A stretch of DNA of 37,008 nt from an uncultured Chthonomonadaceae bacterium (GCA_963835065.1 CAWIEK010000031.1:1-37008); one strand, 5' to 3'. Numbered from the stretch's first letter, positions 13,512-23,208 are shown. A program made the numbers and translations. The notes: generated from the sequence alone by a model not told the origin.

Positions 13512-14476
13512 GAATCTATCTCAAAATAAGCGAGTGGCCTGCCGATGATAAAGTTACGACTACTTTTTTGGAGTGACTTATGGCGCAGACACCCTCTTTA
13601 CCGACGATCTGGCGTGTTCCCGACGAGTTATGGGAACACATTCAGGCGTTGATCAACCAGTACGATCCCCCTTGCAAACGCGGACGCAAGCGCATTGATG
13701 CCCGTCTTGCTCTCAACGGCATTATCTACCGAGCGCGTACCGGCTGCCAATGGAACCAACTCCCCAAGGAGTTTGGCGACGATGCCAGCATCCACCGCAC
13801 CTTGCAGCGGTGGGAGAAGCTGGACTTGTTCGGCAAGTTGTGGGCGGTCCTTCTGCGCAATTGCGACTTCTTGGGCGGCGTAGAGTGGGACTGGCAATCT
13901 GCCGATGCCTGCCTGAGCAAAGCGCGCGGTGTGCCTAAAAAGGGGCACAAGACGACGCCTGTGTCGGTCCCAATCCCACGGATCGTGGGAAGCAAGGCGT
14001 CAAAAAGAGCCTTTTAGTGGAAGGCGACGGCGGGCCGACGCGGCATTTGTATCAGCAGCGCCAACACCAATGACGCGCATCTGCTCGCGGCCACGATCAG
14101 CGCGGTGGTGGTGTACCGTCCGCAGCCCACGCCCGAAGAACCTCAAAACCTGTGCCTGGACAAAGGCTATGACAATCCGCGTGGGGAAGAAGCCGCTAAG
14201 AAAGCAGGCTATACGCCCCACATTCGCCGCATTGGCGAAGAAAAGAAAGACGAAGCGGGCGAGAAAACGCATCCGGCGCGGCGTTGGGTGGTGGAGCGCA
14301 CGTTTGCTTGGCTGTCGCGTTGGCGCGGCATCCTCATCCGGTGGGACAAAAAGCCCAGCAACTACCTGGCAACCTGCAAACTCGCCTGTGCCCTCCTGTG
14401 GTTCCGCAAGTTGCACGTATTAAAGCAAGAGGTCATCTTGCCCGTTGCAGAGCCACTTTCGTTTTGAGATAAATTC
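13512..14476 (+). mobile_element. IS5-family insertion sequence (965 bp) with a TTA target duplication
   Basis: Inverted repeats GAATCTATCTCAAAA (13512-13526) and TTTTGAGATAAATTC (14462-14476), one mismatch. TTA on both flanks (13509-13511 and 14477-14479). Confidence 0.93.
13580..14467 (+). CDS. IS5-family transposase (orfA/orfB joined by a -1 frameshift, plus an extra indel near 14040)
   Basis: OrfA has W..I..L.....GR.R...NGI.Y...TGCQW..LP. The slippery site is AAAAAGGGG near 13937. OrfB has GPNPTDRGK, LCLDKGYD and RWVVERTFAWL. Confidence 0.9.
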
Positions 14477-14502: not shown

Positions 14503-15633
14503 TTATTTCAGAATGAACAGAACATCTGTGTAACTCTGGTAAGCGCGATTATCAACGGACCAGTTAAGCAGAAGGTCTTCTTGCGTGAAAGAGCGCGTAT
14601 CCAGATAAGAGCCAATCTCCTTCTGGAGAAGAGGATAGTCGCGCTTGAGTTTCCAACTCTCCTCAAGATTGTCCTGATTGACCAGTATCAGGAACAGCCG
14701 GTTGCTGGCGTCAAAGCGCTGTGCGCCCTGATTTTCATACAGCCATTGCAGCAAGGGACGCGGGTTGGCAACCGTGTCGGCAATAATCTCTTTCCGCTTC
14801 GCTACAAACTCCTTGTAAACCTGCTGAACCGCAGGATTGGAATTCTCGGAAAGCGCCGTGATGATGTCAAGCATCAGGTCAGGCGCAGGACGGCTATTAT
14901 CGAATGGGATTTGAAAGTGGCGGCAAGCGCGTTGCAGTTCGGAGAGTTCCTGTTGCACCAAACCTCGCTGCCGACGCTGTTCCTTGAGAAACTCCGCAGG
15001 GAAGTAGGTAACTTTGAGATCAAAAGGAATGTTGTCCACAAAAAAGTCTACCTGTTTGATTTGGCCGACCGTTGGCAGGACGCGCGGATGGTCTTTGAAA
15101 ATGTCTTCAATAAGAATGGACGTCCAGTTGTTGTACCAGGAACACAGGACAAAGCCCTTCAAACTTTGCAGCACTTCGGTTTCAATTTTGTTCACAAGTT
15201 CGTCGAAACGGGTGATCTTCTTGACATAGTTATTTACGAGATGCCTGTTAATGTCGTTTTGATGTATGCCGCCCCAATCAAAGATGCGCAATTTGAACAA
15301 TTCGGCAAGCAACGCTGTTTCACCGGCTTTGCGCTCGGCGCGTTCACCAGCGTACAAGTTTTGGATCGCTGTTTGCAGGACGGTCAGCGTCAACGGGGAT
15401 GTGTACAGCACACGAGGCAATTCTCTTACGGGTACAGCAGTCGTGTCTATGCCAATCTGTTCACACACATACAGCAAGTTCTCTCTTCTTGCCAGTGAGC
15501 GCAGTGTCAGGTAGAAAATACCGTCTTCCGTCGCCGTAAGCGACTGAAAATCGCCAGTTCTATACAGGTTCTCAAAGCGGCTGAAATCTTCGTTGAGACG
15601 TGATGGCACGAGGGAAGGACTCCTTACTGGCAT
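14503..15633 (-). CDS. putative type II restriction endonuclease (PD-(D/E)xK fold)
   Basis: VDFF...FDLK catalytic-like motif. It lies 6 bp downstream of a DNA methyltransferase in the same orientation and has lower GC. Confidence 0.65.
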   Translation of the reverse strand: MPVRSPSLVPSRLNEDFSRFENLYRTGDFQSLTATEDGIFYLTLRSLARRENLLYVCEQIGIDTTAVPVRELPRVLYTSPLTLTVLQTAIQNLYAGERAERKAGETALLAELFKLRIFDWGGIHQNDINRHLVNNYVKKITRFDELVNKIETEVLQSLKGFVLCSWYNNWTSILIEDIFKDHPRVLPTVGQIKQVDFFVDNIPFDLKVTYFPAEFLKEQRRQRGLVQQELSELQRACRHFQIPFDNSRPAPDLMLDIITALSENSNPAVQQVYKEFVAKRKEIIADTVANPRPLLQWLYENQGAQRFDASNRLFLILVNQDNLEESWKLKRDYPLLQKEIGSYLDTRSFTQEDLLLNWSVDNRAYQSYTDVLFILK

Positions 15634-15639
15634 CTGTCT

Positions 15640-17142
15640 TTAGCCCATTGGAAAGCGTTCCGACCATTCCGGCAATTGCTGTAACGCTAACGGCAATGCT
15701 GCTGTATCCGCCCCGCCTTTCTGGTAAAGCAGTACAAAATCCGTTTTGAGGCTGCCGTTGCGATTATCCTGAACGACGGAATTGGCGGAATAGTTAAGGG
15801 GAAAGCAGCCGCGATAACAAAGGTTTTGTGAGAGGGAAACCTTTGCGGAAAGGGCATTCCAGCTTTCCGTATCACGCGCATTGAATAATACTGCCAGATA
15901 TTTGCCGGGTTTCAGCACTCTGGCTACCTGCTCAAATACGGCTTCCATATCGGCGGAGTAGAGGGCTTTGGTCTTGTTCCGATTGCGGGCATTCGAGACG
16001 ACGATTTCACGTTCCAAGCACGGTTCCTTGCCGAGCAGAGCGTTCCACATCGCGCTGAGTTCCAGATAGGGAATCCGGTCGCTGTGCGGCGGATCGGTAA
16101 GGATGAGTGAAGCGCACTCCGAAGGCAATGCAGTTAAAATATCTCTGGCATCCGCTTCCACGATAGCCGCCTGCGCCCGATGGTTGAGTACGTCCTCCAT
16201 TGTTCCTGAAAGGCAGCGTCGTTCCTCTGTTGAAAGACGCGACAGGGCTTTCATCAAGACGCAAACCCGATGCTGAAAGCAGTTCCATACATTGATCTCG
16301 AAATGGAGTTCAGGACGCCAGTAACCAATGACCCAACTTCCGACTTCGATTTTGCTGGAGACGGCTCCGCTGGTTTTGCCGCGTCCTGTAATAGCGAAGA
16401 CCATCCGTGACATCTGCCCAGACGCCGACGTGAGCGCTAATCGCAGAGCGTCCTGAACTTCTTCCGGTTGCTGCGAAATGGCTTGCAGCAGCAAATCTAT
16501 GTTATGGCGGGCGCGTCCGGTAAACAGGTCATTCAGCGTGAGGTGTTCGGAAGTGTTGATGCGGGAATTGTGAAAGCTGCGCAGGGGTCGGGGGCATTGG
16601 AAAGCGTAGTCTTCATAATGCAGGAACAGGTCATTATCGTGTGTGGTAGGCGAGCGCTCGTCTCTGCCGCCTTTGCCGCGCGTCACCCGCCACACGGATT
16701 GAAGCGTTTCGCCGCTCCATAAATAATGTGTCGCAATGCCGCTGTCCGCCATACAGTATGTTTTGTCTATCGGTTCGCGCGCCTGATGTTCTATCGCGGC
16801 AACAGCGGTTCGGAATGTCGCCACATCCGGTAAATTCAACAGCAGGCGCGACAATTCAACAGCAATAGGATTGATGTCTATCCCAAGAAAGCGTCGGCCT
16901 CGCAGCACCGCTTCCCGTCCGACAAACCCGGAACCAACGAAGGGGTCAATAATGACATCCCCCGGTTGGGTCAGCGTTTCCATCAGGAACGCCAGACACT
17001 CCACAGGCTTCTTGCCCCAATACTTGTGAAAAGCCGCCAGACCTTTATAGCCCTCCGGCAACTCAATTTGATTTGCCGTCACCGCAACAGGCGCAGTCGG
17101 CAGGAAGGCATAGTCCAGCGTCAATTGAGTATCAAGCGTCAT
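15640..17142 (-). CDS. DNA amino-methyltransferase (m6A/m4C, alpha-type motif order)
   Basis: FHKYWGKKP, motif I IIDPFVGSG, GIDINP, motif IV variant ILTDPPH, and RVLKPG. Confidence 0.9.
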   Translation of the reverse strand: MTLDTQLTLDYAFLPTAPVAVTANQIELPEGYKGLAAFHKYWGKKPVECLAFLMETLTQPGDVIIDPFVGSGFVGREAVLRGRRFLGIDINPIAVELSRLLLNLPDVATFRTAVAAIEHQAREPIDKTYCMADSGIATHYLWSGETLQSVWRVTRGKGGRDERSPTTHDNDLFLHYEDYAFQCPRPLRSFHNSRINTSEHLTLNDLFTGRARHNIDLLLQAISQQPEEVQDALRLALTSASGQMSRMVFAITGRGKTSGAVSSKIEVGSWVIGYWRPELHFEINVWNCFQHRVCVLMKALSRLSTEERRCLSGTMEDVLNHRAQAAIVEADARDILTALPSECASLILTDPPHSDRIPYLELSAMWNALLGKEPCLEREIVVSNARNRNKTKALYSADMEAVFEQVARVLKPGKYLAVLFNARDTESWNALSAKVSLSQNLCYRGCFPLNYSANSVVQDNRNGSLKTDFVLLYQKGGADTAALPLALQQLPEWSERFPMG

Positions 17143-17307: not shown

Positions 17308-17771
17308 TCACTTGACCTTCACGTCCATGCCTTTGTTCTTTTCTTGGTCGAACAAATGAATGCGTGGGCGATTTCTGTGATCAACATCAAGCTTCATGCG
17401 TATGTCTCTTCCTTGCACACCATAAAAGTAAAGGAAGGGGCTATCAAAGTAGGAAGTCTCATCCTTATCTGGCATCTGCCCCGCTACCATTTGATGGTCA
17501 TAATCGCTGATGCCCATATCCAAGCGTTTTCCCCCAAGTACGCCATAAAAAGTTAAGCGCATCATATCATTCTGGTCGGGACCAATTTCCACTCGCTGCT
17601 TCCCCTATTGCCGTATACAATGAGACGCCTCGTGTGAACCACATCTTGAATTTTGGCTTGTGTTTCCTTGTCGTATTGGTCTTGCCGTTTCGGTTCTGCC
17701 TTAGCCCAGATAAGCACTCCAATAGTTAGGAGTACGATAAGTTCTGCGGCAAAACGTTGGTTGCTGGTCAT
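17308..17771 (-). CDS. hypothetical membrane-anchored or secreted protein, split by a frameshift near 17602
   Basis: AGGAG SD and an N-terminal hydrophobic helix (ORF 17562..17771). Adding one G to aggggaag gives NRGKQRVEIG and joins ORF 17308..17592. Confidence 0.6.
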
Positions 17772-17958
17772 ATTTTCTCCTTTCAGTAAGCAGCCACATT
17801 AACAGGTAGCCGTACCATATGCCTTTCTCCCATCGTGAAAGAGAAGCATTTCTGCATCGTTCTAAGCCATTACGAGTAAGATACATGCCTATTCACACTG
17901 GCAATAGGCAAATTCCTTCTTCGTTCGAAAAATAAAAAGCATTTTTGAAAATCACTTC

Positions 17959-18186
17959 TTAACGCGCAACATTGCCACCACCTTGCAGCAGTTGTTCCAC
18001 CATCAGGAAATCCTCATCGGAGGCTTGTTCAAAAGCGTCGAATTCCGCTTGCAGTTCGGCGGCAATGGGCGGAAAGTGAAGGCGCAGAACATTCAGCAAC
18101 AGGCTGTCTTTGGATTGGCCGGAACGTTGCGCCATTTCTTCGGCGGCTTCGGCAATATCGTCCGGCACGGCTAATGTGTAACTCAT
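17959..18186 (-). CDS. small antitoxin-like protein (RHH/CopG-like N-terminus, acidic C-terminus)
   Basis: MSYTLAVPDDIAEAAEEMAQRSGQSKDSLLLNVL shows a beta-alpha-alpha pattern, with an acidic tail EQASDEDF. AAGGA SD. Confidence 0.65.
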   Translation of the reverse strand: MSYTLAVPDDIAEAAEEMAQRSGQSKDSLLLNVLRLHFPPIAAELQAEFDAFEQASDEDFLMVEQLLQGGGNVAR

Positions 18187-18236
18187 GGAAAATGTTCCTT
18201 TCTCAGTTTGCTAAACCGCGTGAACCTTCCATCCAC

Positions 18237-18632
18237 TCATGCTGCCGATTGCATAGGATGCCCGTAGGCTTGCAGAGCATCTCGCTGCTGCTGGCGCAGT
18301 CGTGCCGCCCATAGTATGGCATAGCCCTTGTATTGACCCGGCGAGTTTTTCTCCCAACTCAATGCGTCAAACAGTTTCAGCGCGTGCCGCAGACTGCCCG
18401 ATTTGGCATAACATATTCCTGCGCTGAACCCGTGCCGCGCCGCCATGTCTTTCTCACCTGCGCGGGCATAATACCGAGCAATTCGCGCTTCCATCGGGGC
18501 GGCAAGCGCATACCGCTCAATCGCCTGTTCTAATTCGCCCGTGCCAATCAACACAGAGGCTTCCAGCAACAGGTTCGACTTGTTCACGATCAACTCGGCT
18601 ATCGTTTCCGGCATATCGTGTTTTTTGCTCAT
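18237..18632 (-). CDS. hypothetical helical (TPR-like) protein
   Basis: GGAGG SD before ATG 18632. Ala-rich helical pattern (EQAIERYALAA...SAGICYAKSG.LRHAL). Confidence 0.7.
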   Translation of the reverse strand: MSKKHDMPETIAELIVNKSNLLLEASVLIGTGELEQAIERYALAAPMEARIARYYARAGEKDMAARHGFSAGICYAKSGSLRHALKLFDALSWEKNSPGQYKGYAILWAARLRQQQRDALQAYGHPMQSAA

Positions 18633-19126
18633 GGCATTGCCTCCTCTGGCGCCTAACGCGAAAGCCAAATCTTGCGCCGCGCAGAACCAACGATTACGAC
18701 ATAACCGCCCCTCGTTTTGGATTAGCCTGCAACCCGGCAAGCAAACCCATGCCGTTCCCTGCGCGTCACAAAAATACTGAAAAAAGAGCAAAATAATGTG
18801 GAAAAGATGAACCTTTTGCCCGTCTCAGACTGTCTAAACAGTGGTACAAACGTCTAAAGATGTAATACAGATGTTATTCATACAGGAAGGGAGGTGCAAA
18901 GCCTATGTTTCACCCCTCCCGTTCGCCCTGATGCTGCTGAGGCCACGACGCCTCTCTCCTACAACCTGACACAACGAGACATCGGGCTGGAAGCGCTGCA
19001 TTGCCAAGATTTCGACGATGACTCTACATATTGCCTTCTTTTTCGGCCTGTTACCTCCCAGGCATTGCGCCCATGTACACGCGGTTCCACGTTTTGAAAG
19101 CCTGCACCCCGGCAGGGGTATCGCTG

Positions 19127-19397
19127 CTATCCGCAGACAGTGCCGGAACCCAAACACTTTTGCAGGTACTGCCCGGTATAACTTTGCTTTACCTGCGCGA
19201 CTTGTTCCGGCGTTCCTTCCGCAATCAGCCTGCCGCCGCCATCGCCACCCTCCGGCCCCATGTCCAGTATCCAGTCACAGGTTTTGATCACGTCCAGATT
19301 GTGTTCGATGACAAGGACGCTGTTGCCTGCCGTCACTAAGCGGTTGAGGACGCCGATGAGTTTCTCCACGTCCGCAAAGTGCAGCCCCGTTGTCGGC
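19127..19397 (-). pseudogene. uvrA: duplicated 3' fragment of uvrA (direct repeat of 20159-20429)
   Basis: Encodes [10 protein letters not shown]...[10 protein letters not shown]. My manual alignment gives 28 nt differences in 271 and only 2 aa changes. Confidence 0.95.
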
Positions 19398-19401
19398 GCG
19401 T

Positions 19402-19845
19402 TCACGGCGTATCCGGGTAATCCTGTAGATGCTTCACGTAGGACAGTTCGCTGTGAACCGCGTCATAAAAGCGCGTGTCGGCTGTCCAGAACTCACAACC
19501 GCGCAGTTCGGCAAGCGCGGCGTACAGCGAGTCGTAAATGCGCTCCTGATCATAGCGACGCGCAATTTGCCGCGCCCGTACAATCATGTCAGGATGAGTG
19601 ACAATCTCAATGTTGAGGGCGGCCAGGCGAGCAAGCGCGGCATCGGCTTGTGGCGAAAGCAGAGTGCCTGTGTAAAGGTACTTCTGTACGACGCTTTCCA
19701 TCTCGTACTCAAAAAGTGGCGGCGCGATAAATTGAATGTCGGCATCAACCGCGTCATTCAGCAAACGGCGAGCTTTCTGCTGCCAGCGTTGGTTCGGCAC
19801 GATCCATCTGACAGCGATGCTTGCGTCTATGCAGATTTCGTCCAT
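19402..19845 (-). CDS. vapC: PIN-domain toxin, VapC family
   Basis: Acidic PIN residues in [19 protein letters not shown] and WTADTR. The ATG overlaps the antitoxin stop (TAATG). Confidence 0.9.
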
Positions 19846-20117
19846 TAGCAAATATCTCGCTCTTCACGCATCTGGCAAATCGTTTCCGTCGCGTCAAGCA
19901 TCCCCGGTTCGTCATCCGGCAAACCTTCCACTTCAGCCAGAATTTGCCGTGCCAGTTGTACCCGCTTTGCATGATCCGCGCTCTGCTCTGAAGGGTTAAC
20001 CGGCGCGTCAGGCGAAAAAACATGCAGTTTTACGCCGAGACGCTGAAGCAAGGCTTTCTGGTCTTGCTCGGAAAGTTGATGTGCCAGTTGCTCGACCGCT
20101 TCCAATGTTGGCGTCAT
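19845..20117 (-). CDS. putative antitoxin of the VapC module
   Basis: AGGAGG SD, a 90-aa product MTPTLEAVEQLAHQLS...DATETICQMREER, translationally coupled to vapC. Confidence 0.8.
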   Translation of the reverse strand: MTPTLEAVEQLAHQLSEQDQKALLQRLGVKLHVFSPDAPVNPSEQSADHAKRVQLARQILAEVEGLPDDEPGMLDATETICQMREERDIC

Positions 20118-20158
20118 AAGTCCTCCTGTGTTGAAATCTTCAAATCTGTTATTTGCGT

Positions 20159-23100
20159 TTACCCGCAGACCGTACCACTTCCGAGACACTTTTGGAGGTA
20201 CTGCCCGGTGTAACTTTGCTTCACGAGTGCCACTTGTTCGGGCGTACCCTGCGCAATGAGTCTGCCGCCGCCATCGCCGCCCTCCGGCCCCATGTCCAGT
20301 ATCCAGTCACAGGTTTTGATCACGTCCAGGTTGTGTTCGATGACAAGCACGCTGTTGCCTGCCGTCACTAGACGGTTGAGGACGCCGATGAGTTTCTCCA
20401 CGTCCGCAAAGTGCAGCCCCGTTGTCGGCTCGTCCAGGATGTAGATCGTTCTTCCCGTCGGGCGCTTGGCGAGTTCGGACGCGAGTTTCACGCGCTGCGC
20501 TTCCCCGCCCGAAAGCGTGGTGGCGGGCTGTCCCAGCCGGATGTAGTCCAGTCCCACATCATGGAGGGTGCGGAACTTGCGGGCGATGTTGGGCAGCGCC
20601 TCGAAGAACTCGACGGCTTCCGAAACCGTCATGTCCAGCACATCGGCGATGTTCTTGCCCTTGAACTTCACTTCCAGCGTTTCGCGGTTGTAGCGCTTGC
20701 CCTTGCACACCTCGCACGGCACGTACACATCCGGCAAAAACTGCATCTCGATCTTCAAGATGCCGTCGCCCTTGCAGCTCTCGCACCGCCCGCCCTTCAC
20801 ATTGAACGAAAACCGCCCCGGCTCATACCCCCGTACCCGCGCATCCTGCGTTTTGCTGAACAGGACGCGGATCAAATCGAACGTGCCGGTATACGTGGCG
20901 GGATTGGAGCGCGGCGTCCGGCCAATGGGCGATTGGTCAATGTCAATGATCTTGTCCAGATGCTCCAGCCCGCGTATCTCCTCGTGCGCCCCCCACACCG
21001 TATGCGTTTTGTTGATGCGGTTTTGCAGGATCGGGTACAGCGTTTCCTGTATCAACGTGGACTTGCCCGACCCGGATACGCCCGTCACCGCCACAAACAG
21101 GCCGAGCGGAATCTTCACATCCACGTTTTTGAGGTTGTGCTGCTTCGCGCCGATCAGTTCGATGCACTTGTCACCGGGAGCGCGGCGCACTTGCGGCACT
21201 TCGATTTTGCGCCTGCCGCTCAGGAACTCGCCCGTAATGCTGTTCGGGTTGGCCTTGACTTCGGCAACCGTGCCTTCGCGCAACCACATGCCCGCCATGC
21301 TCGCCCGCGCCCGGCCCGATGTCAATGAGCCAGTCCGCCGACTCCATCGTTTCTTCGTCATGCTCCACGACCAGAACCGTGTTGCCCAATTCGCGCAGGT
21401 GTTCCAGCGTCTTAATCAGTTTCGTATTGTCGCGCTGATGCAGGCCGATGCTCGGCTCGTCCAGAATGTAAAGGACACCCATCAGCCCCGACCCGATCTG
21501 CGTCGCCAATCGAATACGCTGCGCTTCCCCGCCCGCAAGCGTTCGCGCCGAGCGATCCAGCGTCAGATAGTTCAGGCCGACATTGAGCAGAAAGCCGACG
21601 CGCGTTCGTATCTCCTTGACGACCTGCCGCCCGATCATCATTTCTCTGTCCGTCAATTTCAAGTCGTTAAAGAACGCGCCGATTTTTTCCAGCGACAGGG
21701 CGCACAAATCGGAAATGTTGGTTTTGCCGACTAGCACGGCCAGCGCTTCCGGTTTCAGCCGCTTGCCCTTGCACACGGGGCAGGGACGCTCGCTCTGGTA
21801 CTGCGCCAAATCTTCCTTCACGTAATCACTCGTAGACTCTTTGAACGAGCGCTCCATGATTTCAAGCACACCCGCGTATTCCGAATCGAAGTGGCGCGTC
21901 CGGCCCCACTTGTTGCGAAATTCGACGGTGACATTGCCCTTGATGCCGTTCATCAGCGAATCGTACTGCGCTTTCGTCAAATCTTTGATAGGCGTATCCA
22001 GCGTAAAACCCAGTTTCTTCGCCACCGCCCGGAACATGGCCGTGCGATGGTCCGACATAATATCCTTGCCGGACTTGTACACGAAATAGCGGATGGCCCC
22101 CTGCGCGATGCTCAAACTCTTGTCGGGAATAATGAGCGCGGGGTCGAACTCGGTTTTGGTTCCCAAACCGTGACAGTCGGGGCACGCGCCATATGGACTA
22201 GTTGAACGAAAACAGGCGCGGCTCGATCTCGTCGTAATTGAATTCGCTGTCGTCCGAAGCGTAATTTTCCGTAAAATGCAGTTCCTGAGCGGGATTGTCG
22301 CCCAATGCGTGAACATCCACGCTCGCCACGCCCTTCGCCCGCTTCAGCGCCTGTTCCAGCGCGTCCGTAATGCGCGTTCGGCTGATGTCTTCCTTCATCA
22401 CAAGGCGGTCAATGACGATTTCGATGGTATGCTGCTTGTAGCGCTCCAGGTCGGGGATGTTTTCGCTCAGGTCTACCATTTCGCCGTCTACCCTTGCGCG
22501 GACATAGCCCTCCTTGAGAATGTCCTCCATCTCCTTTTTGTACTCGCCCTTGCGTCCGCGTATCACGGGCGACAAAATCAGGAAGCGGGTTCCCATCGGC
22601 AGTTCCAAAATCCGGTCTACCATGCTCTCAATGTTTTGCTTGGTCAGGGGCAGGCCGGTTTTGGGGTCGTGCGGAACGCCCACGCGGGCATACAGCAGGC
22701 GCAGGTAGTCGTAGATTTCGGTGACAGTTCCAACCGTAGAGCGGGGGTTTTTGCTGGTGCTTTTCTGGTCAATGGAAACGGCGGGGGAAAGGCCGTCAAT
22801 CTGATCCACGTCCGGCTTGTCGTGCAGTCCCAAAAACTGGCGGGCATACGCGGACAGGCTTTCCACATAGCGGCGCTGTCCCTCCGCGTACAGCGTATCA
22901 AAGGCAAGCGAGGATTTGCCCGACCCGCTCAGGCCGGTAATCACAACCAATTTATCGCGGGGAATGTCCAGACTGATGTTTTTAAGGTTGTTCTGCCGCG
23001 CCCCCCGGATGCGGATCACGCCATGACACGGCGCGTCGTCGGGATCGTTCAGGCGCTCGGCAGCGGCTTGCAGTGTCTTTTCCTCCTGCTCCGCTATATG

Positions 23101-23208
23101 CGCGAAATCGTCCTGACCGTTCGCCCGATGCCCGTTGCCCTCACTGTCTGCCTTGCCGTGTCCAATTTTCGTTTCTTTTGCCCGTCCTGCCGTCTTCGCC
23201 TGTGCCAT
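20159..23208 (-). CDS. uvrA: excinuclease ABC subunit A, split into three ORFs by single-base insertions near 22199 and 21278
   Basis: [51 protein letters not shown], zinc finger CESC...[12 protein letters not shown] and LDEPTTGLH. The N-terminal extension may start at 23329 if there is a third indel. Confidence 0.95.

Follow-up and report, generated by a model that had tools for sequence, protein, structure and literature searches.

A predicted toxin-antitoxin pair between two alleles of the uvrA 3' end in an uncultured Chthonomonadaceae bacterium and its probable entry by homologous recombination

How does a toxin-antitoxin (TA) pair without any mobility gene come to lie behind a housekeeping gene? 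The question is raised by a 37,008-nt stretch of DNA from an uncultured Chthonomonadaceae bacterium (GCA_963835065.1 CAWIEK010000031.1:1-37008), which was analysed as a whole and is designated as the window; it is contig C31 of an 8.0-Mb genome in 71 contigs (G000). On its minus strand the 3' end of uvrA occurs twice, and a gene for a VapC-like PIN toxin and a small gene for its likely antitoxin lie between the two copies. A preliminary description, made from the sequence alone, took this for a minimal TA cassette that had integrated into uvrA by a single crossover, using a replacement 3' end. Here we show that the pattern is real, better than chance and a scar of a known kind, and we propose that host homologous recombination, not an integrase, probably placed the pair there. 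The features are listed below; the downstream copy of the gene end is called the orphan.

20159..23208, minus strand: uvrA, start approximate; three open reading frame (ORF) pieces with two frameshifts, each piece with an NCBIfam UvrA match
20159..20429, minus strand: repeat copy 1, the working end of uvrA; this copy, or at least its 3' part, is likely the incoming allele (origin by analogy with ppdK)
20118..20158, minus strand: 41-nt spacer with an AGGAGG ribosome site, read from the sequence
19845..20117, minus strand: predicted antitoxin, ORF of 90 amino acids (aa), TAATG-coupled to vapC
19402..19845, minus strand: VapC-like PIN toxin, 147 aa (PF01850, E 3.4e-12)
19398..19410, minus strand: cargo-orphan junction, crossed by a contig of run X13
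19127..19397, minus strand: repeat copy 2, the orphaned end of uvrA and likely the resident one, displaced
17959..18186, minus strand: 75-aa ORF, marker of an empty-site-like context; its homologue lies directly after uvrA in the same-genus genome G002

Over 271 nt, at an offset of 1032 nt, the two copies (19127-19397 and 20159-20429) give a gap-free alignment; they form the longest direct repeat within the window, which bears out the earlier statement that the last ~90 codons of uvrA occur twice, 1032 bp apart. The alignment also reproduced the 28 nt differences counted by hand, 5 in the first 166 nt (97% identical) and 23 in the last 105 nt; 23 codons differ and two residues change (Q/E and L/Q), and the differences include the reported Ser codon switch (AGT/TCC) and the two stop codons (TAA/TAG). 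By the Nei-Gojobori method, the synonymous distance (dS) was 0.44 and the non-synonymous distance (dN) 0.03 overall; dS was 0.13 over the 5' 165 nt and came close to saturation (~1.8) over the 3' 102 nt. The resulting dN/dS of 0.06 confirmed the synonymous bias on which the preliminary description had relied. That description had also regarded the tail CLGSGTVCG as unusually conserved; this was refuted, because the tail is identical in G002 and reads CLDSDTVCG in G001, and a tail conserved across the genus is no special feature of the repeat. The insert between the copies is 761 bp long, and the uvrA frame is intact past it, with the 3' fragment downstream. At the cargo-orphan junction, the vapC stop lies 4 nt ahead of the repeat, and a short stretch imperfectly matches uvrA sequence lying upstream of PTTGLH. 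Neither a sigma-70-like promoter nor a terminator match was found in the spacer at 20118-20158, the 2 promoter sites of the whole scan (1.5 expected) lying elsewhere, and Rfam gave just two matches over 17500-20500, both far below the gathering score. From a GTG that overlaps the stop of vapC, a 92-codon ORF runs through the orphan (19127-19405), from which a UvrA C-terminal peptide could be translated; the ORF may be due to chance.

The PIN protein matched PF01850 with 47.5 bits (cut-off 23.6; E 3.4e-12) and, by inspection, has the four acidic active-site positions, while its TIGR00028 score was far below the family cut-off. The 90-aa ORF matched no Pfam or NCBIfam family. Thus, the toxin half of the "antitoxin-vapC pair" described earlier stands, and for the other half we infer the label "antitoxin"; the order and overlap of the upstream small gene fit a VapBC module. 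The ORF has five homologues in a large protein set, and small ORFs resembling it by eye sit ahead of VapC homologues in G159, G185 and G009. Binding of the two proteins was predicted with a score of 0.60, against 0.00 for the best control; contacts agreed to at least 73%, and the predicted local distance difference test (pLDDT) of the partner was at least 68. This lends weak backing to the TA identity: of 78 solved pairs 51 reached the mark, and of 108 mismatched pairs 2 did so, but only 5 of the 78 solved pairs reached it with a score of 0.60 or less, as did all 4 passing mismatches. Family searches of the cassette ORFs upheld the earlier remark that no recombinase is encoded. The best ESM Atlas matches (0.89) are unnamed and serve as a lead only; a search of a plasmid collection with the cassette gave no match, phage records gave only uvrA-like matches to the orphan at 69-76% identity, and neither VapC nor a degenerate uvrA-tail pattern gave a match in scans of JGI metagenomes.

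The arrangement is not confined to uvrA. Using gene calls from a simple dicodon model (6925 genes), we searched up to 10 kb from each of the 4979 genes that encode 120 aa or more for partial repeats of low copy number. A downstream orphan of the gene's own 3' end was found for 25 genes, an upstream one for 4, and the two 5'-end classes held 1 and 1; when repeats stopping short of or running past the boundary were admitted, the counts were 42, 16, 6 and 11, the 5' classes being under-detected because gene starts are less certain than stops. Since one repeat on contig C35 accounts for two rows, the 25 rows represent 24 distinct repeats. A single lactate-permease locus contributes two of them as sister copies, a tyrosine recombinase is among the host genes, and one case may be the remnant of an FHA domain. 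Other hosts are uvrA, recA, dnaA, recJ, pyrH, ppdK (with two serial orphans), galT, kdpD and acrB-like genes. The 28 bracketed intervals, counting four further ones with diverged tails, total 68 kb (median ~2 kb; repeats 45-284 nt) and carry PIN, ParDE, Gp49-HTH, HNH, AAA_21 and methyltransferase genes, among others. The preliminary description had proposed a search for other TA modules flanked by duplicated gene ends; the scan yielded ~24 other sites with unrelated cargo. One insertion sequence lies within one cargo and is missing from its sister copy. Intergenic DNA has comparable repeats as well, and one covers a 5' end together with the region upstream of it. The dN/dS pooled over 22 gene-orphan pairs (C35:34928, C44:424158 and C44:30075 left out) was 0.086, with 138 synonymous and 42 non-synonymous changes, which points to two alleles under purifying selection and not to a decayed copy.

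Relatives carrying other cargo at uvrA 3' copies, as anticipated earlier, were indeed found. Among 42 family genomes, uvrA was examined in 35, of which 31 had at least 1.1 kb downstream, and an orphan was present in 9 of these 31 loci (G000, G001, G003, G013, G015, G159, G185, G187 and G189), two of the nine being cut by contig ends. The orphans start 114 to 809 nt before the stop, and their junctions differ. The cargo, assigned partly by eye, varies as well. Besides this PIN pair there are two further PIN-pair families, one of them in four genera and the other in G185, while G003 carries an HNH pair and G159 a 6.5-kb block. For other taxa, the best 80 of 600 uvrA loci, taken from one 64th of the collection, were examined; 68 of them had 3 kb or more of downstream sequence, and none of the 80 had an orphan. 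Kin are not independent, and 9/31 and 0/80 are therefore given as plain counts. In a tree of 21 rows, which leaves out orphans shorter than 150 nt, four orphans pair with the uvrA of their own genome and a fifth falls in an unresolved clade of its genus, indicating independent events with closely related donors. Outside the family, the phylum members G121 and G152 have uvrA orphans; they were picked for extra matches among 151, and with 233 matches not listed they give no rate. Donor-like states, that is, TA-like genes after uvrA without an orphan, were seen by eye in G002, G170, G178 and G179; kdpD in G002 and ppdK in G001 carry orphans of their own with other cargo, and in G171 a related VapBC is bracketed by a methyltransferase tail. 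The end of the ABC-ATPase is conserved almost to the stop codon, which is the likely reason why uvrA is a hotspot.

Two of these loci have further content. G013 (L019:3100-3426) has two stacked uvrA orphans with a 37-nt remnant of another gene's end between them, as after serial insertion and then deletion. The 6.5-kb uvrA cargo of G159 (L066:3558-9750) comprises a 1587-aa sacsin-like protein, an HTH gene and a small TA-like pair next to an orphan of 708 nt; beyond it lie a VapBC homologue and additional defence-like genes.

Which copy is the resident one can be judged from sites that lack the insert. At ppdK, the single gene end of G002 runs into the sequence that follows the distal orphan of G000 (85% identity over 423 nt), and the G000 orphan there is thus the displaced resident end. 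At uvrA, G002 has a single copy followed by a homologue of the gene lying 940 nt beyond the G000 orphan, and this uvrA has the orphan's two residues and its stop codon; G002 is another species, and further inserts intervene downstream of the G000 orphan. The nearest counterpart to the empty uvrA sites foreseen by the preliminary description is the empty-site-like allele in G002, the only clean empty site being that at ppdK. For recA, DUF1501, DUF3500, dnaA and TPR genes, the G001 and G002 loci showed no orphan within 1.5-kb flanks and no matching downstream neighbour; these five host genes neither support nor oppose the direction.

From these observations, we judge it probable, with moderate confidence, that the PIN gene and its likely antitoxin were placed behind uvrA by homologous recombination of the host. 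In a close relative, the pair would already have lain behind uvrA, at a permissive operon end. A fragment with the last ~270 nt of the relative's uvrA allele and the pair would have entered the lineage, been trimmed and been circularised by a non-homologous join, which would be the present vapC-orphan junction. A single RecA-type crossover in shared uvrA sequence would then have integrated the circle, leaving the gene frame whole and the resident end stranded downstream. Selection would set the 3' polarity, because internal fragments would disrupt the gene and 5' fragments would require a promoter; insertion-duplication mutagenesis offers a parallel. The toxin would slow loss of the insert via recombination between the repeats, a penalty on excision that is plausible, as is read-through from uvrA. 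The process would be blind to cargo and target.

Several lines of evidence favour host recombination of this kind. The synonymous bias suggests that both alleles once worked and hence that one was transferred between lineages. Variable junctions and many targets exclude one site-specific recombinase, and the free junctions, the grouping of the orphans and the ~24 other sites with unrelated cargo are most simply explained if the uvrA end was a homology handle that arrived with its cargo. A gene followed by its orphan is the product that a single crossover would give with a circle carrying the gene's 3' end. With E. coli lacZ, one-sided end homology gave trimmed, recircularised, single-crossover products with duplications of 109-950 bp; 56 of 60 clones gave the duplication PCR product, and 14 were sequenced (PMC3240628). 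The cassette of the preliminary description is thus retained for its diverged functional alleles and its single-crossover-type product, and given up as a dedicated element with a maintained replacement end.

Other observations weigh against this proposal. The lacZ event was rare, at ~4e-9 per recipient (PMC3240628), and Ku, which might have supplied the joining activity, was found in none of the five genomes searched. ComEC is present in all five genomes, and uptake of single-stranded DNA would favour a linear route. No circle or excised allele was seen in low-depth contigs of other samples. In five uvrA cases, only ~4-40 nt separate the toxin stop from the orphan, a closer spacing than would be expected of random trimming; a deletion at a later time or repeated use of a single junction may account for this. 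In nucleotide distance, the G002 uvrA is closer to the gene copy (37/267) than to the orphan (44/267), at odds with the two residues and the stop codon that it shares with the orphan. Only 2 of 43 PIN/ParE matches from whole-genome family searches, which missed at least three toxins seen in the cargo ORF scans, lie inside the 28 intervals, indicating that most TA modules here left no such scar. Finally, a rough scan of random 20-kb tiles with a noisier, model-free scanner, in which shadow ORFs misassign some cases (ppdK was scored as upstream 5'), found 8 cases in the 2.42 Mb that it covered of G000 and a single one in 0.78 Mb of G001, with none in 0.8 Mb of G013, G159 and G005 and none in 1.08 Mb of outgroup loci; G000 looks the richest in scars among the tiled genomes, at low power.

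It is possible, though on balance doubtful, that the orphan is a second homology arm and that such pairs are self-propagating and targeted to gene tails without a mobility gene. Both arms would match the uvrA end of any relative, and the pair could pop out as a circle or, through homologous exchange alone, move into a strain with an empty site regardless of the sequence downstream, the orphan being refreshed with a working allele each time. This fits the same junction in a relative diverged by ~10%, the open frame of the orphan, the mosaic divergence of the copies and the finding that four genera, whose orphans differ, have a PIN pair of one family behind uvrA. If true, it would amount to the "virus-like cycle" that has been proposed, not shown, for restriction-modification genes.

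A route through linear DNA is unlikely, yet it is the best of the remaining alternatives to a circle. In homology-facilitated illegitimate recombination, exchange would occur upstream in uvrA and the far donor end would be joined by microhomology inside the resident end, giving the same product without a circle, with the whole orphan being resident sequence. ComEC in all five genomes and the short imperfect match at the cargo-orphan junction speak for it, and it has been invoked for displaced type VI secretion system (T6SS) effector ends (PMC9711863). However, an upstream match is missing at many other junctions, and this route is described as deleting about the inserted size, whereas the E. 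coli duplications arose from circles, which were ~10 times commoner than products of the linear illegitimate route (PMC3240628). The circle and the linear route are not separable from the present sequences.

Erosion of phage-like elements or of elements like integrative and conjugative elements, with an attachment site in the gene end and everything lost except the addictive pair, is improbable. The anatomy is that of icd/icdC (PMC13626634), erosion to TA-only islets has been proposed for Photorhabdus (PMC13617665), and one orphan-bearing host gene is the tyrosine recombinase. However, ~24 specificities would be needed in one genome, with every integrase lost; the uvrA junctions are spread over ~700 nt; and the orphan starts, although sharp, share no motif by eye. 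Among 175 host, cargo and flank ORFs scanned, not all cargo DNA having called ORFs, the tyrosine-recombinase host gave the only integrase match. Still less probable is a tandem duplication of the uvrA end in place, with cargo added later and a spare copy decaying: the 97% identity of the 5' 166 nt and the non-synonymous decay of a few other orphans would suit it, whereas the dN/dS values at uvrA and in the pool, and repeats that end at the stop codon and not at random, do not.

An assembly chimera of two strains, which the preliminary description had named as one way in which its reading could fail, is hardly credible: despite indel errors in the assembly and although none of the contigs listed spans both repeat copies, contigs from other public runs cross the single junctions and eight other family genomes have the same layout. 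A 318-nt contig of X13 crosses the vapC-orphan junction gap-free, with 30 differences and ~154 and ~161 nt on either side, and X13 contigs additionally cover the vapC-antitoxin join. The uvrA-spacer junction is crossed by an X1 contig (near-identical, possibly from the source campaign) and by an X2 contig of another study (~84% identical; 1635 nt), which holds the uvrA tail, the antitoxin and part of vapC, with no orphan piece among the matches listed; X2 also holds a second uvrA allele with different downstream DNA. These contigs have a depth of 2-6, and single differences may be errors. The two uvrA frameshifts are likely assembly errors, because 12 of 77 orthologues are split by frameshifts genome-wide (0.12 per kb) and a relative's contig has no base at one of the two places. 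An apparent 1032-nt back-jump joint was rejected as a contig misplaced by the cut reference; it lies wholly at 20128-20358.

Other features of the window and of the genome were noted. A high-copy intergenic repeat at 18767-19040 (184 BLAST matches in the genome) has a conserved core of ~145 nt with a sharp end, and a ribosome site and micro-ORF on the plus strand; it has no Rfam match and folds no better than shuffles. This ~270-nt stretch was rejected as an attC-like site, since it is not part of the direct repeats and occurs throughout the genome. The 75-aa gene at 17959-18186 is antitoxin-like: its G002 homologue (L017:5550-5997) precedes a truncated MazF-like gene, of which only the first codons seem left in the window. 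In G002 (L016:2993-4176), the first 38 codons of this gene, with a stop, follow atpC, and then come an ORF of 205 aa and a gene homologous to the 133-aa one at 18237-18638 of the window; one set of small genes thus shuffles between gene-end sites. A DNA methyltransferase (500 aa) and an unannotated 376-aa partner at 14503-17142, probably a restriction-modification pair, adjoin an IS5-type element (13580-14467). Short direct repeats at 1492-1530/2045-2083 and 1764-1805/2337-2378, 553-573 nt apart, probably mark tandem paralogous small genes. Elsewhere in G000 are a second, more distant uvrA paralogue (C44:443617-444543; 69% DNA identity) and exact head-to-tail duplications of 2.8-5.1 kb with 98-99.7% identity (C37:154696-160353, C41:109882-116750 and C41:163419-173689), which are either real amplifications or artefacts of long-read assembly.

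For the entry of chromosomal TA islets without mobility genes, erosion of carriers and exchange through flanking core genes have been proposed (PMC13617665). The present lineage offers a countable record of one entry route, with dozens of dated, oriented scars per genome and a uvrA hotspot struck by separate events in about three of ten relatives; as a by-product, cargo uptake would swap the C-terminal codons of uvrA, recA, dnaA, recJ and pyrH. The anatomy itself is known, and what is new is the TA cargo, the scale, the 3' polarity and the recurrent uvrA hotspot. The part of the literature searched held no report of TA cargo with this signature or of a uvrA hotspot; Figure S7 of Furuta, Abe and Kobayashi (2010) may hold gene-end cases.

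Among known systems, unconventional circularizable structures also have recombinase-free cargo between long direct repeats; they are defined by observed circles and carry resistance cargo, whereas for the uvrA cassette low-depth contigs of other samples gave no circle joint. The element e14 is a 15-kb prophage with a site-specific integrase. As at uvrA, its insertion in icd leaves a working end and a downstream C-terminal fragment, icdC, with synonymous changes and two changed residues, and its excision yields a chimeric icd gene (PMC13626634). The uvrA cassette likewise restores the frame of its target, but it has no recombinase, and there is no fixed crossover site, the orphans at uvrA among family genomes starting 114 to 809 nt before the stop. 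T6SS effector-immunity displacement is similar in that genes are stacked without an integrase and orphans are left downstream, which has been ascribed to homology-facilitated illegitimate recombination (PMC9711863); serial orphans occur here too, at ppdK and at uvrA of G013 and G152. In the T6SS loci described, the resident effector is replaced (PMC9711863), whereas here the housekeeping gene stays whole and is merely a handle. The lacZ products of Amarir-Bouhram (2011) share the one-sided homology at a gene end and the partial duplications (109-950 bp) and were RecA-dependent, but they came from an engineered plasmid with identical homology at very low frequency (PMC3240628), while the uvrA case is natural and involves diverged alleles. 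The insertions with long target duplication described by Furuta, Abe and Kobayashi (2010), with repeats of 24-423 bp (their Table 3) and a mechanism left open, are restriction-modification inserts that resemble ours in their addictive genes, long variable direct repeats and lack of other mobile genes; their repeats often span a start or stop, mostly in competent species (PMC2853133). By the definitions used there, the repeat is longer than 30 bp (271 bp), the insert is shorter than 20 kb (761 bp) and no other mobile-element gene lies in it, while a PIN pair stands in place of restriction and modification genes. The cargo of the uvrA type, namely toxin-antitoxin, HNH and other small genes, differs from that of the inserts described, as do the two alleles with a strong synonymous bias, the ~24 cases in one genome, the 3' polarity and the repeated hits on one gene, uvrA, across a family.

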